This document shows positions 14,662 to 32,000 of a stretch of DNA of 32,000 bases, one piece after another; position 1 is the stretch's first letter, and each line of letters begins with the position of its first letter. A program made the translations under genes and the position numbers. The DNA is taken from assembly GCF_001306055.1 (NCBI RefSeq), contig NZ_LGHJ01000017.1, forward strand, positions 90,001 to 122,000. Reading direction: 5' to 3'. The notes under the pieces are model-generated. The model saw nothing but the letters and a program-made list of their open reading frames with translations, was not told the DNA's origin and searched no databases. Source of the stretch: Bellilinea caldifistulae. GTDB taxonomy: Bacteria > Chloroflexota > Anaerolineae > Anaerolineales > Anaerolineaceae.

Positions 14662-15822
14662 TTAGCGCAGACCGGTATCTACGAAGTCCTTCAAAGGATT
14701 ATTCGGGTCAGCGTACTCTTTCAGGACTTCGTCATAGGTTTTCAAACCCATTGGACGACGTTGTTCCCCCTGCTGATTGGGTTTGAGTCCCAGGAACGTT
14801 TCGATCTCATCCCTCAACTGTTCAACTTGCGTGAATTGTTGTTCAAAAGGTGAATGCTTCAAGCGATGTGGCAGGGCTAATTCGGCTGCAATGGCAATAT
14901 CTTCCAGTGTAATTCTATTCCGCCCTTCAAACGCTGCCTGCGCCCGTGCAGTCTTCAATATCACCATATCCGGACGATGACCATCCACTTGAAAGTGAGC
15001 CGTCAATTGGGTGATTGCCAGCAAATCATCGCGTGAATATTGCACTTCTTGAAGCAGACGGCGCGCCTGTTGAATCTGGAACCCCAGTTCACGTTCGCGA
15101 GTCTGCCATTCGCGGCAAAATGCCTCCGGGTTTTCTTCGTATGCCAGTCGCCGTTTCATGATGGCGACCCGTTCCAATGCGCTGCGTAAGCCGCGCACCT
15201 GCACCGAAAGCCCAAAACGATCCAGTAATTGCGGGCGCAAATCGCCTTCCTCCGGATTCATGGTGCCCACCAGGATAAAGCGGGCCGGGTGGCTGAAGGA
15301 AACCCCCTCCCGTTCAATGATATTGACCCCCATCGCAGCCGAATCGAGCAAGACATCTACCACATGATCGTCCAGCAAATTGACCTCATCAATGTAGAGC
15401 AGACCGCGATTGGCCGCTGCCAATACCCCCGGCTCGAAAGCTTTTTCCCCTTTTTGGATCGCCTTTTCAATGTCCAGTGTACCAACCACCCGGTCTTCGG
15501 TTGCTGAGATGGGCAAATTCACAAACGGGGTTGGACGGGTAATCACGGAGGGTTTCACCCCATCCGTAAAACGCTGGCGGCATTCGGTACACCACTCCAT
15601 TGGCCGGTCAGGATCACATCCAAAACGACAGCCTTCAATGACTTTGAGCTCCGGCAGCAAGGCTGCCAGGGCGCGCGCCGCGGTGGATTTAGCGGTTCCA
15701 CGTTCCCCACGGATAAGAACGCCGCCAATCCGTGAATCAATGGCGTTCAAAATTAAGGCACGTTGCATGCGTTCCTGCCCGACAATAGCGGTAAAGGGGA
15801 AATTGTAGGTAAATTGCTGCAT
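14662..15822 (-). CDS. ChlI/BchI-like AAA+ ATPase (Mg-chelatase subunit I family; orphan and atypical)
   Basis: FPFTAIVGQERMQ..., Walker B LLYIDEVNLLDDH, and PARFILVGTMNPEEGDLRPQLLDRFGL, all typical of ChlI/BchI. Walker A reads GERGTAKS. A 4-Cys insert C-x3-C-x8-C-x2-C is present. Confidence 0.85.
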   Translation of the reverse strand: MQQFTYNFPFTAIVGQERMQRALILNAIDSRIGGVLIRGERGTAKSTAARALAALLPELKVIEGCRFGCDPDRPMEWCTECRQRFTDGVKPSVITRPTPFVNLPISATEDRVVGTLDIEKAIQKGEKAFEPGVLAAANRGLLYIDEVNLLDDHVVDVLLDSAAMGVNIIEREGVSFSHPARFILVGTMNPEEGDLRPQLLDRFGLSVQVRGLRSALERVAIMKRRLAYEENPEAFCREWQTRERELGFQIQQARRLLQEVQYSRDDLLAITQLTAHFQVDGHRPDMVILKTARAQAAFEGRNRITLEDIAIAAELALPHRLKHSPFEQQFTQVEQLRDEIETFLGLKPNQQGEQRRPMGLKTYDEVLKEYADPNNPLKDFVDTGLR

Positions 15823-15833
15823 GATTTTTTCTC

Positions 15834-16613
15834 TTATGCCTTCACCATCTCCAGCCGGCGTAATTTGATACTGTCTGTATCGCGGGTCTTCTGGTGACGG
15901 CAGGCGATCACTTCTGCCAGTATTGCCACTGCAATTTCCTGGGGGGTAACCCCGCCCAAATCCAGGCCGATAGGCGCATAAACCCGCTCCAGCTGGAGGG
16001 GATCAAAACCATCCGCCAGCAAATGCTCACGAATGGTACGGCACTTTGCCAGACTGCCAATCATGCCAATGTAGGGAGCAGGCGTGGTCAGAGCATAGCG
16101 CAGGGCTGCCTCATCCGAAATATGATCGGTAGTGATCAACACCACATAAGAATCTTCACCGAGTTTGACCTGTTCCAGTTCAGGGACGGTGGCCAGTCCG
16201 GCCTGCACATCCACCACCACCACTTCAAACCCGGCGGCTTCGCCCATGATTTTTAGCGGTCTTCCAATGTGTCCGCCGCCAACAATGACTAACTGGGGAG
16301 CGGGAAGAAAGGGTTGGATGAAAACCGTCACCTCCCCACCGCACAGCGTACCAATTGCATCTTCCCCTTCCTCAGCCAATTTGTAATGGAAAAGGCCAGA
16401 ATGATGCTCGGTCAATGCCTTCCTGGCATCACTTAAAATGGCCGCTTCCAATTTACCACCACCGACCGTACCGGCGGTTTTGCCATCGGGCAGAAGCACA
16501 ATTTGCGCTCCAACCTTTGCCGGCGATGCCCCGCGCACCTCGATCACCGTCGCCAGCACAGCCGGTTGGCGGTTCTCAATGGCCTGTGCAAGTTGTTGGA
16601 TGGCTTTGGACAT
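15834..16613 (-). CDS. XdhC/CoxI-family accessory protein
   Basis: An N-terminal XdhC_CoxI-like region (ATVIEVRGASPAKVGAQ...GTLCGGEVTVFIQP) followed by a Rossmann-like XdhC_C region (LVIVGGGHIGRPL). AAGGAAGTGA SD. Confidence 0.85.
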   Translation of the reverse strand: MSKAIQQLAQAIENRQPAVLATVIEVRGASPAKVGAQIVLLPDGKTAGTVGGGKLEAAILSDARKALTEHHSGLFHYKLAEEGEDAIGTLCGGEVTVFIQPFLPAPQLVIVGGGHIGRPLKIMGEAAGFEVVVVDVQAGLATVPELEQVKLGEDSYVVLITTDHISDEAALRYALTTPAPYIGMIGSLAKCRTIREHLLADGFDPLQLERVYAPIGLDLGGVTPQEIAVAILAEVIACRHQKTRDTDSIKLRRLEMVKA

Positions 16614-16628
16614 CTTTTCACTTCCTTG

Positions 16629-16880
16629 TCAGTTCGTTTTAACTGCCTCTTTCAACCAGTTCTCAATTTCGGCTTTGGAAGGAATTCTGCCGTAGGAAAC
16701 TACTTTACCCTCGATCACCAGTCCCGGCGTCGCCAGAATCGGGTATTGCATGATATCGGCATGATTGGTTACCTTTTCAAACTCGGCTTCAATTCCAAGC
16801 GTAGCCACCACTTCACGGGTTACGGCCTCAAGCCGTTTGCAGTTTGCACAACCCACACCCAAGATCTTAATGTTCAACAT
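16629..16880 (-). CDS. Thioredoxin-fold protein (redox-active disulfide protein 2-like, CxxC = CANC)
   Basis: [18 protein letters not shown]...[18 protein letters not shown] matches the small thioredoxin-like family. GAGGTGA lies 6 nt upstream of ATG 16880. The ORF-track start 16907 lacks an SD. Confidence 0.85.
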
Positions 16881-16904
16881 ATCTATCACCTCAGTTATAA
16901 AATA

Positions 16905-16918
16905 CATTCATTTGAATG
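16905..16918. promoter_or_regulatory. Palindrome CATTCA-TT-TGAATG in the divergent control region
   Basis: A perfect 6-2-6 inverted repeat immediately downstream of a minus-strand TATAAT (16930-16925), an operator-like position for the trx-xdhC-chlI operon. Confidence 0.35.
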
Positions 16919-17045
16919 AATATTATTATAATTCTAAAATCCCTCATTACCAGTGACAAGTGTAAGAGATTTTCGGGAGGGGTCTCACAGAAAAAAATCT
17001 GCAAATTGGTTTTCCTGCTTTTAATCTTTAAACTGCCATTCAGGT

Positions 17046-17051
17046 TATAAT
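17046..17051 (+). promoter_or_regulatory. Possible -10 box (TATAAT) for the microcompartment operon
   Basis: A consensus TATAAT lies 35 nt upstream of the rpiB start. I found no convincing -35 at a 16-18 nt spacing. Confidence 0.25.
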
Positions 17052-17085
17052 CTACGTAATCCAATCCACGTCCGGGTGAATCTCC

Positions 17086-17667
17086 TTGTCCCCCCTATCC
17101 GAATCGGAGTTACGAGAAATTGTCTTGCGGGTTATTCAGCAAACCACCGGCCAAACCTCAGCTGGGGCGGTCACTACTCCTGCGCCTTCTTTCAATGCCG
17201 ATCCTCCAAAAAAGGTCATAGCCCTTGGCGCTGATCACGGAGGCTTTGAGCTTAAAGAAATTTTGAAAAAAGATCTGGCCGAAGCTGGTTATTCCATTCT
17301 TGACGTTGGAACAAACAGCAAAGACGCCGTGGATTACCCGGACTTCGCTCATGCGGTTGCCAGTCAGGTTGCCAGCGGTAAAGCATGGCGTGGGGTTATC
17401 ATTGATGGCGCTGGAATCGGTTCTTGTATGGTTGCCAACAAAGTACCCGGTGTGCGGGCTGCCCTTGCCTATGACCTGTCCTCAGCAATCAACAGCCGCG
17501 AACATAATGACGCCAATGTTCTCACCCTTGGGGCAGGATTGATTGGCGTCAATTTAGCCCGACAAATTCTCAAAACCTGGCTGGAAACTGCTTTTGCGGG
17601 CGGCCGTCACAGCCGCAGGGTTGAGAAAATTACGGCCATTGAAAAAGAATACCTCAAGGGAGGTTAA
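17086..17667 (+). CDS. rpiB: RpiB/LacA/LacB-family sugar-phosphate isomerase (ribose-5-phosphate isomerase B) with an N-terminal extension of about 43 aa resembling an encapsulation peptide
   Basis: The core ALGADHGGFELKE...YPDFA...GIGSCMVANKVPGVRAAL...REHNDANVLTLGA...GGRH is typical RpiB. There is no in-frame ATG before the core, so a non-ATG start is required. TTG 17086 has GGGTGA 6 nt upstream. Confidence 0.88.
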   Translation: MSPLSESELREIVLRVIQQTTGQTSAGAVTTPAPSFNADPPKKVIALGADHGGFELKEILKKDLAEAGYSILDVGTNSKDAVDYPDFAHAVASQVASGKAWRGVIIDGAGIGSCMVANKVPGVRAALAYDLSSAINSREHNDANVLTLGAGLIGVNLARQILKTWLETAFAGGRHSRRVEKITAIEKEYLKGG

Positions 17668-17673
17668 GCCAGC

Positions 17674-18603
17674 ATGAACGCCGATCCCAAAACGATTGCT
17701 TCATTGGTCGAAATCATCACCCGAGAAGTTCTGACCAGCCTGATGCAGCGCCAGGCCTCCGCCGAACAAAATGAAAACGGTTGCAAATTTTCCTGCGCGG
17801 AGGGAATCTGTGTGCAAACCTGTTTCGATAAAGTTGGACAGGTCATTCACGCCGGGGCAGAGCGTGTCTCGAACGGGCTGGGTGGGGTGCCACAGGATCT
17901 GAAAATCGCCGGCATGATTGACCACACCCTGCTCAAGCCGGATGCCACTCAGGAGCAAATTGCTCAACTTTGCTTTGAGGCCAAACGATATGGTTTTGCT
18001 TCCGTATGCGTCAATCCTACCTGGATCGAATTATGCAGCAAACTGGTACAGGGTTCGGCGGTGAAAGTTTGCACGGTGATTGGGTTTCCACTGGGCGCCA
18101 ACACCCCCGAAGTCAAAGCATACGAAACCGCCCAGGCCATTCAACTCGGCGCTCAGGAAGTGGATATGGTCATCAACATCGGCGCGCTAAAATCCCGCGA
18201 TTTGCAACTGGTTGCTCGCGACATTCGCGGAGTAGTTAAAACCGCCCACGAAAATGGGGTGCTGGTCAAGGTCATTATTGAAACTGCTTTGCTGACCGAT
18301 GAAGAAAAAGTGATCGCGTGTTTGATTTCTAAAGAAGTCGGTGCGGATTTTGTCAAAACCTCCACCGGCTTTTCTGGAGGGGGCGCCACCGTTGACGATG
18401 TTGCCCTCATGCGACGAGTGGTTGGCTCACAGCTCGGCGTCAAAGCGTCCGGAGGGATACGCACCCACGAAGATGCCGAACAAATGATCAAGGCAGGCGC
18501 CAACCGCATTGGAGCCAGCGCCAGTGTCAAAATCATCTCTGGGGCGCAACCCACCGACTCACCAGCCAAGATACCTGAACCAGCTCTGCAAAAAAGTTAT
18601 TGA
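17674..18603 (+). CDS. deoC: Deoxyribose-phosphate aldolase (DeoC) with an N-terminal extension of about 80 aa (encapsulation-peptide-like helix plus 4-Cys motif)
   Basis: The core is [11 protein letters not shown]...ASVCVNP...[10 protein letters not shown]...VDMVINIG...DFVKTSTGF (Schiff-base Lys context)...[18 protein letters not shown] upstream of the ATG. Confidence 0.92.
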
Positions 18604-18616
18604 GGGAGAAGATGCC

Positions 18617-18910
18617 ATGCTGATCGCCAAAGTAATCGGCACGACTGTGGCAACCATCAAGGATGAAAAACTTGCCGGGCGCAAATTGCTGGTTGTTCGT
18701 CCCACTGATGAGTTTGGAAACCCCAGTGGTAAACCATTTGTAGCCATTGACACGGTAGATGCCGGCATTGGGGATCTGGTCCTGACCTGTGCCGGTTCCT
18801 CAGCCCGCCAGACCACTTTCACCAAAGATACCCCGGTTGACGCAGTCATCATGGCAATTATTGATAGTCTGGAAGTCGAGGGGCAAATAACTTTTCAAAA
18901 ATCCCCCTGA
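18617..18910 (+). CDS. BMC vertex protein (BMC-P; EutN/CcmL family), paralog 1
   Basis: MLIAKVIGTTVATIKDEKLAGRKLLVV...AIDTVDAGIGDLVL...SSAR...PVDAVIMAIIDSLEV is the classic EutN/CcmL pattern. GAGGGAGA SD. The ORF-track start 18509 lies inside deoC. Confidence 0.9.
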   Translation: MLIAKVIGTTVATIKDEKLAGRKLLVVRPTDEFGNPSGKPFVAIDTVDAGIGDLVLTCAGSSARQTTFTKDTPVDAVIMAIIDSLEVEGQITFQKSP

Positions 18911-18926
18911 TTCGCCCTAAACCATC

Positions 18927-19247
18927 ATGTTACTTGGCATTGTCAAAGGTAATGCGGTTTGCACCATAAAATACCCCGGCACCCAGGGGTTAAAATTACT
19001 GGTTGTTCAACCGGTCAATAAACACCTCCAGCCGCTGGGAGGGTTGCAAGTCGCAGCCGATACCGTTCACGCCGGTGAGGGTGACTTATGTGTGATGGTG
19101 CGTGCCCGCGAAGCCGCCTTAGCTTTGCCAGATGAGAAATTTGTCCCGGTTGATCTGGCGCTGGTTGGAATTGTGGATGAACTGGAAGTCAAAAGTGACG
19201 CATCCTTTAATCTCACCCTCCAGCGAGGTTGGAATCCCTACTCGTAA
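18927..19247 (+). CDS. BMC vertex protein (BMC-P; EutN/CcmL family), paralog 2
   Basis: MLLGIVKGNAVCTIKYPGTQGLKLLVVQP...AADTVHAGEGDLCV...VDLALVGIVDELEV. More divergent than the other two, and I saw no clear SD. Confidence 0.82.
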   Translation: MLLGIVKGNAVCTIKYPGTQGLKLLVVQPVNKHLQPLGGLQVAADTVHAGEGDLCVMVRAREAALALPDEKFVPVDLALVGIVDELEVKSDASFNLTLQRGWNPYS

Positions 19248-19256
19248 GGTCAGAAC

Positions 19257-19529
19257 ATGATTCTTGCCAAGGTTGTCGGCACGGTTGTTACCACCATCAG
19301 TCACCCCGATTACAAAAATCGGCGGCTGCTGGTTGTACAGCCGCTTGGCCTGGAAGACGAAGCCCCCGATACTGACTTCATCGCCCTCGACAACACGCAC
19401 GCCGGCATTGGGGATACCGTCCTGGTCAACCGGGAAGGGAACGGCGCCCGTCAGGTACTGCAAAACCCCAATGCCTGCGTCATCTCGGTGATTGTGGGAA
19501 TTGTTGATTCGGTCTATCTGGAAGAATAA
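19257..19529 (+). CDS. BMC vertex protein (BMC-P; EutN/CcmL family), paralog 3
   Basis: MILAKVVGTVVTTISHPDYKNRRLLVVQP...ALDNTHAGIGDTVLV...NGAR...VISVIVGIVDSV. Confidence 0.88.
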   Translation: MILAKVVGTVVTTISHPDYKNRRLLVVQPLGLEDEAPDTDFIALDNTHAGIGDTVLVNREGNGARQVLQNPNACVISVIVGIVDSVYLEE

Positions 19530-19535
19530 ACCTCG

Positions 19536-20018
19536 CTACCTTACCACCTCGCCTTTTACAACAATCATCGTTCCGGTAATCCGTTGAGATACCAGAACCC
19601 GATGCTCTTCTTCTATCAAGAAAATCCCAATGCCGGCTAATGTTCGGCAGATTTCCCCCTCCAAATGGAGAGAATCTTCATAAACCGACAACAGGCGATC
19701 GGCATCATCATCGGCCGCCAGGCGGTTGATTGAAACTGCTCCACATTCGGTGCAGGAATGAATCAACATCAATTCACCTTGCAGTAAATCACCATACTTT
19801 TTCCGCTGCCTTTTGATGGTCAGTCCAATCGGCTTCATAGCGCCTTTACAAGCGCTCAGCCGGTCACCCGCGCTGAATAAATCCACGTGACGCGACCAGA
19901 GGCAATAAGGGCAATGATTACGATTGGACACACCGCTCAGGATTGGATGAACCGAAACCCAATTTCCACAGTGCTTGCAGGTGAAATCCTGTTGGCTGGG
20001 GTAAAAGCGCTTTTTCAT
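19536..20018 (-). CDS. RNHCP domain-containing zinc-ribbon protein
   Basis: FTCKHCGNWV...SNRNHCPYCLWSRHVD...GDRLSAC...HSCTECG matches the RNHCP domain signature, with a C-terminal tail of about 60 aa. ATGA overlap with the rsgA stop codon. Confidence 0.8.
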   Translation of the reverse strand: MKKRFYPSQQDFTCKHCGNWVSVHPILSGVSNRNHCPYCLWSRHVDLFSAGDRLSACKGAMKPIGLTIKRQRKKYGDLLQGELMLIHSCTECGAVSINRLAADDDADRLLSVYEDSLHLEGEICRTLAGIGIFLIEEEHRVLVSQRITGTMIVVKGEVVR

Positions 20019-25311: not shown

Positions 25312-26262
25312 ATGCCAAAAAGCTGGATTCTGATAGTGATAAGTAGTTCCATTTTGCTGCTTGCTGCCTGCGCACCTGCCGCTGTACCGACTACGCCGTT
25401 GCTGCCCGCTCAGGAGCAAACCCAACCCCCTGCAACTGAACCAACTTTCCCGCCAATCCCGGAGCAGGTTACCCCCCTCCCCACCATCGGTATAATCATA
25501 GATCAGGAAGAGGCTGATATGATTTTTGAAAAAGTGCGCCCCCTGATTGCTGAACAAATCGGGGTGACACCCGAAGCGATTAAACTGATCGAGATGACAC
25601 CGGTTGAATGGCCGGACGGCTGCCTCGGTCTGGCATCTCCCGATGAGATGTGCCTTCAGGTCATCACGCCCGGTTACCGCTTATTGATCGAGGTCAACGA
25701 CAGCACGCTTGAAGTACGCACCGATCAAAAAGGTAATCAGGTGCGGGTCAATCGGGGTACGGTGCTGCCCGATGTCCGCGTATCAGAAAAGGAAGTTCCC
25801 GCTCGCTGCCAGCAGGAAGGCATGAAAACCCTTGTGGATTTTACGGATGGTTATTGCTTTGCCTACCCGGATGATTTTATCGCCGATTCCCGTGGGTTGG
25901 CAGCAGTCTACGCTCAAACCGAAAACTCCGCCAATCCAGAAGCGGTTGTCGCCCGCCTGGATGTTTTCAGCAGCCCGGCAGCACCGGACGCCACGCTACA
26001 AAAACTGGTCAGCGAGTTCCGCAAACAATTTGAAGGGCTAAATCCGCCGGTCAACCTGCGCCAGACGCAAATAACGCTGAACGGACAACCTGCCGAGGTA
26101 TTGGAACCGGTGCCCGGACGGCTGAGTTCGCGGATGGTCTTTGCCCTGCATAATGGGTTTTTCTATCAATTGATTTTCTTCCCAATTGACGAACCCAGTG
26201 TCGAATCCGATCTCAACCGGCTATACGAAGCAGTTATCTCCACCTTCACCTTCATCCCCTGA
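25312..26262 (+). CDS. Secreted lipoprotein of unknown function
   Basis: Signal peptide plus lipobox (ILLLAAC), a Pro/Thr/Gln-rich linker, then two globular segments. GGAGGA lies 8 nt upstream. I recognised no family. Confidence 0.7.
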   Translation: MPKSWILIVISSSILLLAACAPAAVPTTPLLPAQEQTQPPATEPTFPPIPEQVTPLPTIGIIIDQEEADMIFEKVRPLIAEQIGVTPEAIKLIEMTPVEWPDGCLGLASPDEMCLQVITPGYRLLIEVNDSTLEVRTDQKGNQVRVNRGTVLPDVRVSEKEVPARCQQEGMKTLVDFTDGYCFAYPDDFIADSRGLAAVYAQTENSANPEAVVARLDVFSSPAAPDATLQKLVSEFRKQFEGLNPPVNLRQTQITLNGQPAEVLEPVPGRLSSRMVFALHNGFFYQLIFFPIDEPSVESDLNRLYEAVISTFTFIP

Positions 26263-26274
26263 ATGGTGAAGCCA

Positions 26275-26308
26275 GCCTCCCGCCAAAAATGGCGGGAGGC
26301 CCTTTTTC
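26275..26308 (+). terminator. Intrinsic terminator after the lipoprotein gene
   Basis: GCCTCCCGCC-aaaaat-GGCGGGAGGC followed by CCTTTTTC. It abuts or overlaps the stop codon of the convergent pgmB. Confidence 0.6.
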
Positions 26309-26957
26309 AAAGATCAGGTACTAATTCCCTCAGCCGTTGCAGCGAAACGCCGTTCAAATCGGGCAAATGATAATCAGCCGAACTCACCCGCTCAATTGGC
26401 CCCAAGCCCAATGTGCGCATCCCGGCGGCTTTTCCGGCGGCAATGCCGGCCTCGGCATCCTCAATTACCAGACATTCTGCCGGTTCAACCCCCAAACGTT
26501 CGGCTGCCAGTAAAAATAAATCCGGAGCCGGTTTACTGCGAGCAGCAGCGTTGCCGTCCACAACCGTATCCAGCCACTCGCCAATTTGCAAACGCTCCAG
26601 TACCAGAGGGGTATTCTTGCTGGATGACACAATCGCCACTTTGTAGCCGGCCTGATGCAATTCTTTGAGCAATTCCAATGCCCCCGGCAGTAAATTTTGA
26701 GGGGTCATTTTGGATACATACTCCATATAGTAGCGGTTTTTTCGCTCCATCCACTCGTTCATTTCCTGCTCCGTCGCCGGGCGGCCATCCAGCAGAATCA
26801 ACAGCGACTCTCGACGGGAAACTCCCCTCAAGGCTTCGTTTTTTTGCCGGTCGAATGGCAAGCCCAATTCATCCGCCAGCCGCTTCCATCCCAGATAATG
26901 AAACTCGGATGTGTCGGTCAAAACCCCATCGAGATCGAATAATATTGCGCGAATCAT
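26307..26957 (-). CDS. pgmB: Beta-phosphoglucomutase (HAD superfamily)
   Basis: The DLDGVLTDT nucleophile motif, ...RGVSRRESL..., SSSKN and ...IEDAEAGI... match beta-PGM. ATGA overlap with the GH65 stop codon. Confidence 0.88.
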
Positions 26958-29146
26958 CCTTCAGCAACCCCCGTCTGCGGATTGCACAGGTCAAATTCAT
27001 AAGGCTGCCCGCGGTATCTAATCCGAAAAACCAACCGCCGCCAGTGACGGGGCAAACAGGGGTAGGTTTTCGGGCCGTCAGGCTCAAATCTGAGCCCTCC
27101 AAAGCCGAATACAATCGCCTGCCAGATACCACCCGCCGATGCCGCATGAATGCCGTCGTGGGCGTTCCCGCGCACATCCTCTAAATCCGCCAGTGCAGCG
27201 CGCATAAAGTGTTCATACGCCTCATCCGGTTTTCCTACCCGACAGGCAATGATGGCATGAATGGCCGGCCCCAATGACGAGCCAAAAGTGTGATCCGTGC
27301 GGGCGTTGTAATACTCATAATTGACCCTCAGCGTTTTTTCATCAAACAGTTCAGGCAGTAGATAGGCCAGCATGACCACATCTGGCTGCTTGAGAATGTT
27401 GGCTTCATTAGCGCCTTCAATTCCCAACAGGGATTGAATGGACTGGGTACGCGGCTCAAGGGCTTGCAAATCAATCTGCCGGCGCTGGAAATAGCCCTCA
27501 AACTGTTCAATTAAACCGTTCGACTCATCCTGCTTCCAGTAAATTTTTTCGGCCACCTCGCGCCAGCGGGTCAATTCACTTTCGTCCAGTTCCAGCGAAC
27601 GACGCAATTCGGCGGCTTTAGTCGGATAGCGTCCTTCCAACCAGTCCAACACCTTCAACGCAGTTGACAACTGCCAGCGAGCCAGTGCATTGGTGTAGGC
27701 GTTGTTATCCACATGGTCATGGTATTCATCCGGGCCGATGACATCGGTAAACTCGTAACAGCCGGTTTCACCATTCCATTCCGCCCGGCTGGCCCAAAAA
27801 CGAGCCACATCCAGAAAAATCTCCGCTCCGCGATGGGCCATGAAATCATCATCACCGGTTGCCTGCCAGTATTGCCAGATGGCATAACAAACATCCGCCG
27901 AAATATGAATTTGAATATCCCCCGTCCAGATGCGAATCAGTTTGGTTCGGTCGGTGGGATGGGGCACCCAGGTGGGTGTTACTTCTTCGCCGGTCGCAGC
28001 ACTTTCCCACGCAAACTGAGCTCCATTGAAGCCGTTTTCACGGGCTTTTTTACGTGCCCCCTCCAGGGTGTGAAAGCGGTAGGAAAGCAAATTTCGAGCA
28101 ATCTCCGGACGGGTGTAGGTAAAGAAAGGCAGCATAAAAATTTCGGTGTCCCAAAATACATGCCCGCGGTATCCATAACCAGAAAGCGCCTTTGCCCCGA
28201 TACTCACCCGCTCATCCTGACGGGGAGCGGCTGCCAGTAATTGGAACAGGCTGAATCGCACTGCAAGATGGGCACGGTCATCTCCCTCAATCACCACATC
28301 GCAGGCTTCCCACTCGCGTTGCCAGGCGCGGGCATGGCTTTCCATTAACCCACTCCATGCTCGTTTCGGGAGCGTTTCCAATGCCCGCCGGGCAGCCCCC
28401 TGCGGGTCGGTGGTTTCACGGGATGTGTAAAAAGCGGTTATTTTCTCGATCTCCACGATATCACCACTTTTCAGCTCGGTTGTAACCACCAGCGTTGGGG
28501 CATTCCGGGTATCCCAGGCAGTGTGTTCAAGATTTTCACCGCCATCAACCGTAAGGCGTGTGGCAGCCCCCAGTTCAATTCCAGAAGAACGGGTACGCAG
28601 ATGAAGCCAGGTGTTGTTGTGTTCAAGTCCCTGTCCAAGCCAGTCCCAGTGCTTGTAATTCAGGTTATCCGTATCGCCGCTCAGTGTCGCCCGTGCCTCA
28701 ACAGTCGTGTTTTCGAATGCCTTTATCGTAACCCGCTGACACAGCAGATGCGGGTTGGTCAGGCTGGCAAACCGTTCAAAGAGCAGTAGCCAGCGCGCAC
28801 CCTGCGGACTGCGCCACTCCACCCGTCGGCTCAACAAACCGTTGCGCAAATCTAACTGGCGCTGGTATGAAAGAATCTCGCCTTCGGTGAGCGAAAACCA
28901 CTCCCCGCCCAGCCGCAGGGTCAAATCCAGCCAATCCGGCGCATTGACCAGCTCGGTAAATACGATGGGAACATCATCGAAGACCCCATGAATGAAAGTG
29001 GTTCGCTCCTCGCCCGGGTAGTGCTCTTCGTGCGTGCCGCGGGTGCCAAGATAACCATTCCCAATCGTAAAAATTGTTTCCGCATGATTCTGGCTTTTGA
29101 GATCAAAGCAATTTTCGGTGATAATCCAGTTGCGTTGGTTAAGCAT
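26954..29146 (-). CDS. Glycoside hydrolase family 65 disaccharide phosphorylase (maltose/kojibiose/trehalose/nigerose phosphorylase type)
   Basis: 730 aa. N-terminal [10 protein letters not shown] and a catalytic-region [20 protein letters not shown] motif. Pairing with beta-PGM is the classic GH65 context. Confidence 0.9.
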
Positions 29147-29183
29147 AATCCAATCCCTCTACCTGCAATATTTTGTTGTGAAA

Positions 29184-30122
29184 TTAACCCTCTTTCAACC
29201 CGGTACCCGCGATACTCTGGGTGAAGTAACGCTGGAAGATAAAGAAAATAATCAAAATCGGCAGGGTGTTGAACAGGGAACCTGCCAGCACTTTCGAAAT
29301 CAGGGTGTAGTACTCGCCGCGGAACCAGTTCAAACCGATTGGCAGAGTGAAGTTTTCCGGTGTGCGCAGAATGGTCAACGGCCACATAAAACTGTTCCAT
29401 TCACCCTGAAAAGTCAACAACGCCAGCGTCAGCAGTTGCGTGGTGCTGATCGGCAGGACGATACGGAAGAAGATGCCAAACCGTCCCAACCCGTCCATCA
29501 TTGCCGCTTCTTCCAGTTCCTTTGGAATGCTCTTGTAAAACTGGGTCATCATGAAGATGCCAAAAGCCGCCACAATGCCGGGCAGAATCACCCCGCCGAG
29601 GTTGTCCATCAGCCCAAAACCGGTTGGAATGGTCAGGTCACCGATTTTCAACCCGCCGCGGATGATACCAGGCCCCACCACCAGGAAATTCGGAATCAGG
29701 GTTACCTGACCGGGAATCATCATCGAGATCAACAGCGCCGTGAACAAAAACTTCTTCAGCGGAAACTCCATGCGGGCAAAAGCGTAGCCCGCCATGGCGC
29801 AAAACAACACTCGTGCAAAGGTTACCACTAACGAAATGATGGTACTGTTCAATAGCCAGCGCGGGAATAGCGGCAAAGCGCCAATCACATCCCGAAAATT
29901 TTCCAGACTGAACGGAATCGGCCAGAACAGCGGCGGGTCATAGACATTGGCAACCGGCTTGAGGCTGAAAACGAGCGTAAAATACAACGGCGCAATGCAC
30001 AATACCGCCCAGCCAATCAAAATAAAATAAAACACCGGTGTTTTGATGCGGTCCAAAACCACAATCAGCCTATCCGAAAGGGTTGCTTTTTTAGAAACTG
30101 TTTGAGAGATAGTTGCCATCAT
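29184..30122 (-). CDS. Carbohydrate ABC transporter permease (MalG-like)
   Basis: Six TM segments and an EAA loop (ELEEAAMMDGLGRFGIFFRIVLP). There are tandem ATGs at 30122 and 30119 after GAGGTG; the second has the better spacing. Confidence 0.9.
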   Translation of the reverse strand: MMATISQTVSKKATLSDRLIVVLDRIKTPVFYFILIGWAVLCIAPLYFTLVFSLKPVANVYDPPLFWPIPFSLENFRDVIGALPLFPRWLLNSTIISLVVTFARVLFCAMAGYAFARMEFPLKKFLFTALLISMMIPGQVTLIPNFLVVGPGIIRGGLKIGDLTIPTGFGLMDNLGGVILPGIVAAFGIFMMTQFYKSIPKELEEAAMMDGLGRFGIFFRIVLPISTTQLLTLALLTFQGEWNSFMWPLTILRTPENFTLPIGLNWFRGEYYTLISKVLAGSLFNTLPILIIFFIFQRYFTQSIAGTGLKEG

Positions 30123-30132
30123 TCCACCTCAT

Positions 30133-31116
30133 TTATGCCGAACCCACACTGCCGCTGCCCTCAATAATCCGTCGTTGAATGAGCGTGAAGACCAGAATGA
30201 TCAACGCCAGGATAAAGGATAGAGCGGCTGCCTGACCCATTTTGACGGTAGTATCCCGGAAAGCCCATTTGTAAATCAAGTAGGCCACCGTCGTGGTCGA
30301 ATCCAGCGGCCCGCCCGAAGTCATCACATAAATCTGGTCGAACACCTGAAAACAACCGATCAACCCCACGGTGACCACAAAAAACACCACCGGGCGCAGC
30401 ATGGGAATGGTGATGTAACGCAGTACCTGAAACTTGTTAGCGCCGTCAATCGAAGCGGCTTCGTAAATCGCAGTCGGAATATCCTGCAAGCCAGCCAGAA
30501 AGATGAGCATCAACGTGCCACTGGTGGTGAAAACATTCAAAATCATGATGGTGTAAAAGGCATAACGCGGATCGTTCAACCAGTTGATATTCAGGTTGAA
30601 AATCTGATTTACGATCCCCAACGGGCTGAACAACCACACAAAAATCAGCGAAATGACTACTGAGGATGTGACCGACGGCAGGTAGTAAATGGTACGAAAC
30701 AACCGCCGAAAACGCAACTTTTGATCCATGGCAAACGCCAGAATCAGGCTTAGGACGGTTTGGGTTGGCACCACAATCAAAGTGTACTTGACCGTGTTGG
30801 GTAAGGCTTTCTTGATGAACAAATCATCGCACGTCAGAGGGGGCGCATCTTCAGCCCGCGGCATCAAGGCTTCAAGGCACAGCACCCGGCGGTAGCCCTC
30901 CAATCCCCACCACTCCGGCGGACGCAGCAGGTTATAGCGGGTAAAAGACAAATAAAAAGCGTAACCGATCGAGAAAACAGTAAAGGTCAAGAAAATAAAC
31001 AAATACGGCAATAAGAAAAGATAAGCGGTAAGCGCTTCACTGCGTTTTTTGCGCTTTTCGGGGTTACTCCCCCGCCGAAACAAACCCGCCGGGCGATTGG
31101 ACACCATCTCTGCCAT
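30133..31116 (-). CDS. Carbohydrate ABC transporter permease (MalF-like)
   Basis: EAA loop (YEAASIDGANKFQVLRYITIP). ATG 31116 has GGAGGA 6-7 nt upstream. The ORF-track start 31131 is a GTG that abuts that SD with no spacing. Confidence 0.88.
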   Translation of the reverse strand: MAEMVSNRPAGLFRRGSNPEKRKKRSEALTAYLFLLPYLFIFLTFTVFSIGYAFYLSFTRYNLLRPPEWWGLEGYRRVLCLEALMPRAEDAPPLTCDDLFIKKALPNTVKYTLIVVPTQTVLSLILAFAMDQKLRFRRLFRTIYYLPSVTSSVVISLIFVWLFSPLGIVNQIFNLNINWLNDPRYAFYTIMILNVFTTSGTLMLIFLAGLQDIPTAIYEAASIDGANKFQVLRYITIPMLRPVVFFVVTVGLIGCFQVFDQIYVMTSGGPLDSTTTVAYLIYKWAFRDTTVKMGQAAALSFILALIILVFTLIQRRIIEGSGSVGSA

Positions 31117-31141
31117 CTTTCCATCCTCCACGATTTCACGA

Positions 31142-31178
31142 AGAGGGTCAGCCTTGAAGCGGCTGACCCTCTTTTTTT
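31142..31178. other. Intercistronic stem-loop between the SBP and first permease genes
   Basis: A 12-bp perfect stem AGAGGGTCAGCC/GGCTGACCCTCT. The T7 tract lies on the plus (non-coding) side, so the minus-strand mRNA carries a hairpin without a U-tail. Confidence 0.4.
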
Positions 31179-31187
31179 ACAACCGCC

Positions 31188-32000
31188 TTACTTCACTTCG
31201 GCAATTTTCTGGCGGATGACCTGCGCCGCCTGCTTCAGGGCAGCATCCACCGGCTGATTTTCCAGATAGATGCGTTCGAGTGCCTTACCCATTTGTTCGT
31301 TGACATCCGAGCCGACCAGCCCCCATACGAAGGGGCGAGCCCCTTGCAGCGCACCACGAAAGATGGCGCTGGAAGCCGGATTGGTCTTCAGGTATTCGCT
31401 GTTTTGCAGCGACAGACGGGTTGGGAGGGCAAAACCACTTTCCAGCACCTTGGTCTGGGCTTTCTCACCGGTCAGGTAGTTGATCACCCGCATGGCTGCT
31501 TCCGGATTCTTGCTGTTGCGCGAGATGACATACGCCACGGTGAAGATCAGGTTGCCCTCGCCTTTGGGGCCAGCCGGCGGGGTGACCACGCCGTAATTGA
31601 TGTTGGGAAATTGCTGCTTCAGGTAGGGAATCAGCCATCCGCCTTCGTAGACCATGGCGAACTGACCCTTACCGAAGACCGTCCCCTGCCAGCCCTCACC
31701 GACATCCGCCGGAATAGCGCCACTCTGATTCTTGCGGAAATCGGTGTAGAAAGTGGCCGCCTCAATCGCCGCCGGGGAGTCGAGCAGGGTATCGCTGTAG
31801 TCATCGGTCATAATCGAACCGCCGTTTTGGAAGACAAAGATGGGGAAGCGTCCCGGATCTGCCGGTACGCCCAGCCCGTAGATGTTATTGGCAGGATCCG
31901 AAAGTGCCTCGGCAGCCGCTTTCAAATCATCCCATGTCCAATCGTCGGTTGGTTCGGCAATCCCCGCCTGAGCGAACAGGTCTTTGTTATAGAACAGACC
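31188..32000 (-). CDS. Sugar ABC transporter substrate-binding protein (family 1 SBP; partial, N-terminus lies beyond the window)
   Basis: The frame stays open to the window edge (GLFYNKDLFAQAGIAEPTDDWTWDDLKAAAE...), which is typical of an extracellular solute-binding family 1 protein. The M at 31925 in the ORF track is an internal TTG. Confidence 0.85.
   Translation of the reverse strand, partial: GLFYNKDLFAQAGIAEPTDDWTWDDLKAAAEALSDPANNIYGLGVPADPGRFPIFVFQNGGSIMTDDYSDTLLDSPAAIEAATFYTDFRKNQSGAIPADVGEGWQGTVFGKGQFAMVYEGGWLIPYLKQQFPNINYGVVTPPAGPKGEGNLIFTVAYVISRNSKNPEAAMRVINYLTGEKAQTKVLESGFALPTRLSLQNSEYLKTNPASSAIFRGALQGARPFVWGLVGSDVNEQMGKALERIYLENQPVDAALKQAAQVIRQKIAEVK

Follow-up and report, generated by a model that had tools for sequence, protein, structure and literature searches.

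A stretch of 32,000 nucleotides from Bellilinea caldifistulae (contig NZ_LGHJ01000017.1, positions 90,001 to 122,000 of the forward strand), hereafter the window, contains five open reading frames (ORFs) that follow one another on the plus strand with intergenic gaps of only 6, 13, 16 and 9 nt and that encode, in this order, an RpiB-like protein, a DeoC aldolase (deoxyribose-5-phosphate aldolase, DERA) and three paralogous vertex proteins of bacterial microcompartments (BMCs), namely BMC-P1, BMC-P2 and BMC-P3 (P1 to P3 in what follows; coordinates, from the ORF map of the window, in Table 1). Together they make up a single operon and represent the "signature module" of a sugar-phosphate-utilising (SPU) microcompartment of the SPU6 type. 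B. caldifistulae is a cultured thermophilic anaerobe of the Anaerolineae (strain GOMI-1), and the five proteins are exact matches to its entries GAP11650-GAP11654 on the 3,698,317-bp scaffold DF967971.1 (GCA_001050215.2). A first-pass annotation, made from the sequence alone, had described five co-directional genes with these same gaps, three of them EutN/CcmL paralogs, bounded by a divergent trx/XdhC/ChlI-like operon and by a convergent RNHCP-rsgA pair 6 bp away; the coordinates and the Pfam assignments bear out both the layout and the flanks. The isolation of the module that it reported also stands, since 17 kb upstream and 12.5 kb downstream are free of BMC genes.

Cargo enzymes and vertex proteins

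The aldolase is, as expected of an SPU locus, a pfam01791 DERA with an N-terminal extension: residues 76-292 align to solved DERAs (E = 4e-88), preceded by an extension of about 75 residues, and the protein scores as the deoC equivalog TIGR00126 with 296.6 bits (cut-off 117; NCBIfam). Its catalytic residues D164, K228 and K257 match D165, K229 and K258 of the characterised SPU6 DERA, which has been shown to be active (Dwyer 2024, PMC11585597), and the GVKASGG motif is present. We propose that the aldolase of the module is active, as these matches suggest, and that its N-terminal extension serves for packaging. The core of the amphipathic helix in the extension is conserved from the reduced loci described below through the complete SPU6 loci, and the SPU6 DERA became soluble once the equivalent N-terminal extension was deleted. 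The helix is followed by a C-x3-C-x4-C-x3-C motif that may be a metal (Zn or Fe-S) site; it is present in 15 of the 18 SPU6-type DERAs examined and partly lost in three (loci L013, L014 and L016). In the part of Dwyer 2024 that deals with the extension, this stretch is described only as two low-confidence beta strands, and Section 7 of that paper is silent on the motif (PMC11585597). The first-pass statement that the SPU class had never been purified or functionally tested is outdated, because SPU6 DERA and its RpiB-type partner (RPI) were purified in 2024, DERA activity was measured and a DERA-RPI complex was demonstrated (Dwyer, Sutter and Kerfeld 2024, PMC11585597). We found no account in which an SPU organelle had been isolated or imaged in its native form.

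The RpiB-like protein carries the PF02502 domain from residue 45 onwards and scores 155 bits against TIGR01120, and its gene adjoins that of DERA, as is typical of the pfam02502 protein with an encapsulation peptide (EP) that SPU loci encode. In the alignment to solved RpiB structures, the catalytic Cys is replaced by Asp107 (VIIDGAGIGS in the window, IVICGTGLGI in C. thermocellum 3he8 and ILICGTGVGI in E. coli 1nn4). The SPU6 RPI, likewise devoid of the catalytic Cys, has little or no ribose-5-phosphate isomerase activity, an inactivity attributed to that loss, and it forms a complex of about 1:1 with DERA and bears a typical N-terminal EP, for which a role in packaging has been proposed (Dwyer, Sutter and Kerfeld 2024, PMC11585597). 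Since Asp takes the place of the Cys here as in that nearly inactive protein, the RpiB-like protein is, by analogy, probably a catalytically impaired packaging adaptor that carries the EP and binds DERA, rather than an isomerase; of the first-pass description, the RpiB family thus holds and the isomerase role probably does not. The EP helix (SESELREIVLRVIQQTTG in the window) is near-invariant, as SE[S/A]ELREIVLRVIQQTT, in the window and in the reduced loci L097 and L094, and its motif D/S-x-E-I/L-x-x-I-V-x-R-V is also found in complete SPU6 loci, while the linker behind it differs at most positions; a helix that is kept next to a freely varying linker is what one would expect if the encapsulation peptide is at work. 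That both enzymes have encapsulation-peptide-like N-termini, as the first pass had noticed, is supported by the conservation of the two helices through to complete SPU6 loci.

The three small ORFs, for which the first pass had allowed that they might fall short of the PF03319 gathering threshold, all pass it (73.6-106.5 versus 25 bits) and cover positions 1-83 of the 83 in the profile, as members of the BMC-P family do. None of them reaches the NCBIfam equivalog cut-off of CcmL, EutN or CsoS4, which places them outside those specific subfamilies. P2 and P3 lie 9 nt apart and complete the BMC-P triplet characteristic of SPU loci. Taking 21 complete SPU6 loci as reference, 93 of the 95 invariant positions are kept (41/42 in P1, 28/29 in P2 and 24/24 in P3), the change at the invariant position of P2, S60A, being shared by the whole clade. 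Judging from their sequences, P1 to P3 would supply vertex pentamers to a BMC shell.

Table 1. Features of the five-gene module and its upstream region (positions in the window)
Feature	Position	Strand	Details
Candidate operator palindrome ATTCAT-N4-ATGAAT	16906-16921		between thioredoxin and RpiB-like genes; aligned in window, L097, L094, L106 and L010
Candidate -10 element GGTTATAATCTAC	17043-17055 (TATAAT 17046-17051)	+	about 35 nt 5' of the RpiB-like start; kept in four five-gene relatives
RpiB-family protein, SPU6 RPI type	17086-17667	+	193 aa, TTG start; PF02502 181.9 bits (cut-off 24.7)
Putative encapsulation-peptide helix of RpiB-like protein	17098-17151	+	aa 5-22; variable linker follows, aa 23-43
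Asp107 codon (GAT) at RpiB catalytic-Cys position	17404-17406	+	from alignment to solved RpiB structures
DERA, SPU signature enzyme	17674-18603	+	309 aa; PF01791 68.5 bits (cut-off 23.8)
Amphipathic helix of DERA extension, putative encapsulation/aggregation element	17689-17754	+	aa 6-27
C-x3-C-x4-C-x3-C motif of DERA extension	17782-17823	+	aa 37-50
BMC-P1, paralog always after DERA in SPU6 loci	18617-18910	+	97 aa; PF03319 106.5 bits
Deletion junction, P1 stop to P2 start	18911-18926		16 nt; complete loci carry AldDH, BMC-H, (EutJ), BMC-Tdp and EutQ-like genes here
BMC-P2, first of the adjacent P2-P3 pair ending every SPU6 locus	18927-19247	+	106 aa; PF03319 73.6 bits
BMC-P3, last gene of the operon	19257-19529	+	90 aa; PF03319 76.5 bits

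Reduction of an SPU6 locus in place

Relatives of the module were collected from aldolase and BMC-H matches. At least 21 complete SPU6 loci share the order RPI-DERA-P1-AldDH-H-(EutJ)-Tdp-EutQ-like-P2-P3, in which AldDH stands for aldehyde dehydrogenase, H for the shell protein BMC-H, Tdp for BMC-Tdp and the EutQ-like gene encodes about 130 residues, and the window contains both ends of this order with the middle removed. The host fits as well, given that the SPU6 subtype has been placed in the Chloroflexi, specifically in the Anaerolineae (Sutter 2021, PMC8217296). The BMC-Tdp and EutQ-like genes that SPU6 loci have between P1 and P2 are absent, and what remains there is a junction whose length of 16 nt recurs in L094, L095 and L097. 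The first-pass assignment to an SPU-type vertex-plus-cargo operon therefore holds, and gene order refines it to the SPU6 subtype of the Anaerolineae.

The closest relative that has kept shell genes, L010 (P1, P2 and P3 90, 88 and 92% identical to those of the window, DERA 73%), is adjoined by the same thioredoxin/XdhC/AAA and RNHCP/RsgA genes, lacks the AldDH gene and retains BMC-H, BMC-Tdp and a 128-aa EutQ-like gene between P1 and P2. That a locus with the same flanks holds the missing genes precisely there indicates a deletion in place. A conventional SPU locus just outside the window, of which the module would be a mere fragment, is ruled out by this synteny and by the BMC-free flanks, contrary to a possibility that the first pass had raised. 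Intermediate forms exist as well: L099/L100, L110 and L147 have the order RPI-DERA-P1-H-unk-P2-P3, and L008, with RPI-DERA-P1-unk-P2-P3, has lost AldDH, H and Tdp. In a neighbour-joining tree of DERA and P1 to P3, L099, L010 and the five-gene clade, all of them without AldDH, group together, and L008 falls among the complete loci, so that the reduction in L008 is independent. The first gene to go was likely AldDH; one branch then lost Tdp, and the ancestor of the Bellilinea clade lost Tdp together with H and the EutQ-like gene. As judged from gene order and flanks, then, the module is a reduced SPU6 locus descended from a complete locus at the same chromosomal site. Throughout this series of deletions, the three vertex paralogs stay with DERA and the adaptor, and not with the shell wall or the AldDH.

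Some observations on other relatives may be recorded here. Most of the metagenome relatives whose DERAs are 56-64% identical (JGI and ENA contigs L126, L137, L149, L152, L155-L157, L159, L164, L167-L169, L172, L175 and L178) have another order in common, (GntR)-RPI-DERA-Tdp-H-P1-AldDH-(H)-P2-P3, presumably another SPU subtype, in which shell genes directly follow DERA. A PfkB-family sugar kinase is encoded divergently upstream of the reduced locus L099 (6004-6924), and a Bmp-family binding protein and an ABC transporter downstream of the complete locus L091 (17744-20630); these genes would fit a supply of (deoxy)ribose or nucleosides, and the window has no such neighbour.

Conservation of the five-gene form

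The five-gene form is not peculiar to the window. It recurs in at least five further lineages (L094, L095/96, L097/98, L105 and L106), with DERAs 83-93% identical, the same gene spacing and, wherever the contig reaches, the same flanking genes. Identity to the DERA of the window is 89% in GCA_053501535.1, 93% in GCA_022736035.1 and GCA_003448875.1, 83% in two Logan contigs and 89% in two JGI contigs, and in other metagenome-assembled genomes (MAGs) of Bellilinea a run of consecutive GenBank accessions points to this layout as well. All five ORFs are intact in every contig of this reduced clade that was examined.

Within the clade, ratios of nonsynonymous to synonymous divergence (dN/dS, by Nei-Gojobori; dS 0.33-2.2, with the larger values saturated and dN low in every pair) are 0.019-0.032 for P1, 0.015-0.076 for P2, 0.007-0.048 for P3, 0.035-0.12 for DERA and 0.08-0.09 for RPI, to be compared with 0.10-0.18 for the neighbouring rsgA and 0.13-0.18 for RNHCP. 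At the amino-acid level, the BMC-P proteins of the reduced clade have diverged 0.29-0.64 times as much as DERA, versus a median of 0.88 (range 0.62-1.37) in 78 pairs of complete loci. The low dN/dS, the 93 invariant residues kept and the conservation of both encapsulation helices lead to the conclusion that the module is functional and not decaying. This argues against regarding it as a decaying relic, left inert by the loss of its microcompartment and turning into pseudogenes, which we hold to be very improbable: half of the ancestral locus has indeed been deleted, but the ORFs are intact across lineages whose DERAs have diverged down to 83% identity, dN/dS does not exceed 0.12 and there is no relaxation in comparison with complete loci, so that the selection analysis effectively refutes the idea of a relic.

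Missing shell and aldehyde dehydrogenase genes

Pfam recognised no PF00936 shell protein, acylating AldDH or PduL among the 28 further ORFs of the window, with all long non-overlapping ORFs covered. In addition, hidden Markov models (HMMs) of BMC-H (198 sequences), BMC-Tdp (22) and BMC-type AldDH (56) were run against all 748 six-frame fragments of the window of at least 25 aa, and the best E-value was 1.7, so not even pseudogene remnants of these three families are recognisable. The first-pass claim that the window lacks BMC-H/T, AldDH and PduL is accordingly upheld, by the Pfam scans for PF00936, AldDH and PduL and by the six-frame HMMs for BMC-H, BMC-Tdp and AldDH. Nor is there any H, T or AldDH gene within about 10 kb on either side of the module in the other reduced-clade contigs that are long enough.

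These absences determine how the locus is to be classified. The 2024 curation requires an AldDH in an SPU locus, and there is none in 32 kb; a main locus has a minimum of one BMC-H along with one BMC-P, and only PF03319 proteins are encoded here. A satellite locus has a single shell-protein class, either PF03319 or PF00936 (Axen 2014; Sutter 2021, PMC8217296), with or without enzymes, which is what the window presents. Lacking both the AldDH and the combination of H and P, the module is a satellite or satellite-like locus by the Axen/Sutter definitions. Of the two alternatives offered by the first-pass annotation, a satellite or a reduced organisation, both therefore apply: the locus arose by internal deletion at its original site and is satellite-like under purifying selection. 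The same curation brought the SPU set from 280 to 206 loci by removing fragmentary loci, those without AldDH and those from obsolete datasets (PMC11585597), so loci of the window type were probably seen and set aside there. The searchable parts of the Sutter 2021 supplements mention neither Bellilinea nor its UniProt accessions (PMC8217296), and literature searches combining Bellilinea with microcompartment or ethanolamine returned nothing relevant.

Is there a shell elsewhere?

What, then, is the use of cargo and vertices without a wall? The reading that we favour, with rather more confidence than doubt, is that of a satellite "SPU module" relying on the shell and the acylating AldDH of a second locus, possibly EUT3-like. 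The DERA-adaptor complex, as cargo, and the vertex pentamers would be supplied to a shell encoded elsewhere, and another genomic locus would provide the hexamer and trimer shell proteins and the acylating AldDH; a partner of the EUT3 type, which would also handle acetaldehyde, appears the most attractive candidate. The gene identities, the series of deletions, the purifying selection and the conserved motifs are observed; that the cargo is encapsulated, that a partner locus exists and of what type, and which substrate is used are matters that we infer. The strong purifying selection on the five genes and on their packaging helices suggests that the products are still assembled into a shell, and we know of no use for a packaging adaptor and three vertex proteins without one. 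An EUT3-like partner is favoured because all the lost genes (AldDH, H, Tdp and EutQ-like) have counterparts in EUT3-type loci; thus the EUT3-type locus L025, from the Anaerolineales, has counterparts of these four and none of RPI, DERA, P2 and P3. Ethanolamine lyase and DERA both release acetaldehyde. As to precedents, SPU6 loci are "occasionally split into two locations", according to one sentence in Supplementary Data 2 of Sutter 2021, and satellites termed "EUT modules" were found in seven SPU6 genomes (Sutter 2021, PMC8217296).

Several points weigh against such a partnership. SPU BMCs are usually not found together with BMCs of another type (Dwyer 2024, PMC11585597). EUT3-type loci carry one BMC-P, and P1 is retained in the module though such a partner would bring its own; the module also lacks an adjacent GntR regulator, unlike many complete loci. 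Protein searches with the closest BMC-Tdp and BMC-H, both from L010, placed no protein named for B. caldifistulae and no member of scaffold DF967971.1 among the best 120 matches or in the 20 clusters inspected. Among these best 120 of thousands of matches, no BMC-Tdp cluster lies between 89 and 96% identity to that of L010, and a single BMC-H cluster (P0435, 93%) lies between 90 and 98%; below the L010 lineage, the lists flatten to a crowd of near-equal matches at about 84-89% identity for Tdp and 85-90% for BMC-H. The lack of any cluster, P0435 apart, at the 90-95% identity expected of a relocated ortholog argues that the deleted block was not simply moved, with the limit that lists of the best 120 would miss EUT3-type or divergent shell genes, so that absence from them is suggestive only. 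Bellilinea is also absent from the genome-collection matches listed for the L010 BMC-H (at least 600), which is uninformative since the SPU6-positive Levilinea and Longilinea are absent too.

The candidates that emerged from these searches did not lead to a partner. P0435, which stands in an EutL-H-EutQ context, is ruled out as a Bellilinea BMC-H by its GC content of 63% (85% at third codon positions, GC3); P0339 turned out to be another reduced locus, L099, P0394 an ordinary complete SPU6 locus and P0190, labelled "Bellilinea sp.", likewise a complete SPU6 locus, with no particular kinship to the window. The contig L185 (ENA ERZ27258490, 1,055 bp), from a high-GC organism (63% GC, 85% GC3), has the order EutL-BMC-H-EutQ, with no AldDH between EutL and H. 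With 93% identity, its BMC-H comes nearer to the one of L010 than does the BMC-H of any complete SPU6 locus seen, which hints at an exchange of BMC-H between EUT-type and SPU6-type loci.

The opposite view is that the Bellilinea clade has no BMC-H/T at all and that the three P paralogs act together with the EP-tagged DERA/RpiB-like complex in the absence of a closed shell, perhaps in an aggregate or condensate of enzyme decorated by pentamers, with cytosolic enzymes handling the acetaldehyde. We regard this as unlikely, yet far from negligible. The clade is well sampled, and still no fitting Tdp or BMC-H cluster near L010 appears among the best 120 matches, just as no H, T or AldDH gene appears in the 32 kb or in the roughly 10 kb around the other modules of the clade. 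The series from a full locus through loss of AldDH (L010) and of AldDH and Tdp (L099, L110 and L147) to the window resembles a progressive dismantling of a shell, and the independent lineage L008 lost AldDH, H and Tdp and likewise kept RPI, DERA and P1 to P3. Against this, no shell-independent function of BMC-P is known; nearly all of the residues that are invariant in shell-bearing loci are kept, and the pace at which the vertex proteins evolve, measured against DERA, is below that of complete loci; conservation extends to the EP helices and to an adaptor that is catalytically impaired and for which a packaging role is proposed; and the negative searches, covering the best 120 matches, are not exhaustive. 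A further alternative, which we consider improbable, is that elsewhere in the genome there is a complete SPU6 locus, equipped with a separate set of RPI, DERA, P1 to P3, AldDH, H and Tdp, of which the module would be a redundant duplicate. Such partial second sets have been described in SPU6 genomes (Sutter 2021 Supplementary Data 2, PMC8217296), and a "Bellilinea sp." MAG does have a complete SPU6 locus, with GntR and in a different genomic context, but its P1 to P3 are just 73-83% identical to those of the window, no closer than those of other Anaerolineae. Moreover, a fully redundant copy would not be expected to hold all five genes at dN/dS values of 0.007-0.12 over a dS of 0.4 to above 1, and no second DERA, Tdp or H of B. 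caldifistulae is found among the named matches listed.

Flanking genes and candidate regulatory elements

Directly upstream of the module, the minus strand encodes a trio of thioredoxin_3, XdhC-CoxI and ChlI/MoxR-like AAA+ proteins (14662-16907; Pfam), transcribed divergently, whose position is kept in L010 and in all the reduced-clade contigs long enough to show it. Downstream, the RNHCP-RsgA pair converges on the operon, the RNHCP stop lying 6 bp from that of P3, and the RNHCP gene (window region 19529-20018) overlaps rsgA by 4 nt. A terminator scan between P3 and RNHCP yielded nothing convincing; no terminator-like hairpin fits between the converging genes, and the two transcripts therefore probably overlap. 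The other neighbours in the window are unrelated to the module and comprise a MarR gene with two ABC exporters, an iron-type ABC importer and a GH65 phosphorylase operon. The latter (26307-31925, minus strand) combines a GH65 disaccharide phosphorylase and a HAD-family hydrolase with two ABC permeases and a solute-binding protein, and looks like a phosphorolytic uptake operon of the maltose/trehalose type; the hydrolase is of the type that is usually annotated as beta-phosphoglucomutase. A 316-aa ORF without Pfam match (25312-26262, plus strand) is conserved at the equivalent position in L010, L094 and L097.

The intergenic region between the divergent thioredoxin and RpiB-like genes contains the palindrome ATTCAT-N4-ATGAAT, which has a single match in the 32-kb window (0.05 expected by chance), and, near it, a second block, ACCAGTGACAAGTG, at 16948-16968. 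The reduced clade has conserved the two elements and L010 has them in recognisable form; they look like an operator, with no regulator gene adjacent. The block GGTTATAATCTAC is a candidate for the -10 element of the operon promoter; a promoter consensus scan did not call it and proposed instead a weaker site, TTGAAT-17-TAAAAT, at 16912-16940. An Rfam scan of positions 16500-19700 gave no credible RNA element.

Relation to known systems

With SPU6 loci the module shares the host class, the RPI-DERA-P1...P2-P3 ends with P2 adjoining P3, and proteins that are 60-92% identical, and its enzymes are of the SPU6 kind, with a DERA extension of about 70 aa and the D/K/K residues, and an RPI with the EP and without the catalytic Cys. 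It differs from those loci in that the window lacks AldDH, BMC-H, BMC-Tdp, the EutQ-like gene of about 130 aa and the adjacent GntR. [quoted passage not shown] In both cases, vertex paralogs and an aldolase stand apart from the shell genes after the break-up of a fuller locus. Nonetheless, the HO main locus is documented in the same genome, while the searches described above found none here; the host phylum and the BMC type differ, and in the window the module has kept its ancestral position and the shell genes have gone, not the reverse.

A different parallel is offered by the EUT modules, satellites with EutA/B/C and EutL that serve SPU6, SPU3 and HO BMCs (Sutter 2021, PMC8217296). Like them, the module is a signature-enzyme cassette with its own shell component that would plug into a shell and an AldDH located elsewhere, and both substrates give acetaldehyde. 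The genes whose loss marks the transition from SPU6 to EUT3, namely RPI, DERA and two BMC-P (Sutter 2021, PMC8217296), are among those that the window keeps. It would, in this respect, be the mirror image of an EUT module, with an SPU module as the candidate satellite; in the literature texts examined, no description of an SPU module as a satellite was found. Finally, FRAG3 loci (Sutter 2021 Supplementary Data 2, PMC8217296) also show a DeoC aldolase beside BMC-P, a BMC-P triplet and scattered shell genes, but their hosts are Calditrichaeota and candidate phyla, the consolidated set has two BMC-H, and they are not derived from SPU6. No earlier description was found of a series of in-place deletions, of fixation across a clade with strong conservation, or of a BMC-P triplet that stays with DERA and RPI instead of the shell wall.

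Implications

SPU is among the most widespread BMC types, with most of its examples coming from uncultured genomes, and the minimal form described here is found in a cultured type strain, B. caldifistulae GOMI-1. The retention of the triplet together with DERA bears on a question that the field has left open: why do loci of the SPU type require three BMC-P paralogs? Should a partner shell exist, an SPU module acting as a satellite would mirror the EUT modules and would support the view of a plug-in metabolosome, in which different substrates share one core for handling acetaldehyde. If there is no partner, vertex proteins and encapsulation peptides would have a role independent of the shell, a considerable surprise, and the function of the vertex proteins would be linked to the signature enzyme. 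If true, this would also have a bearing on the constant presence of BMC-P triplets in SPU, HO and ACI loci.

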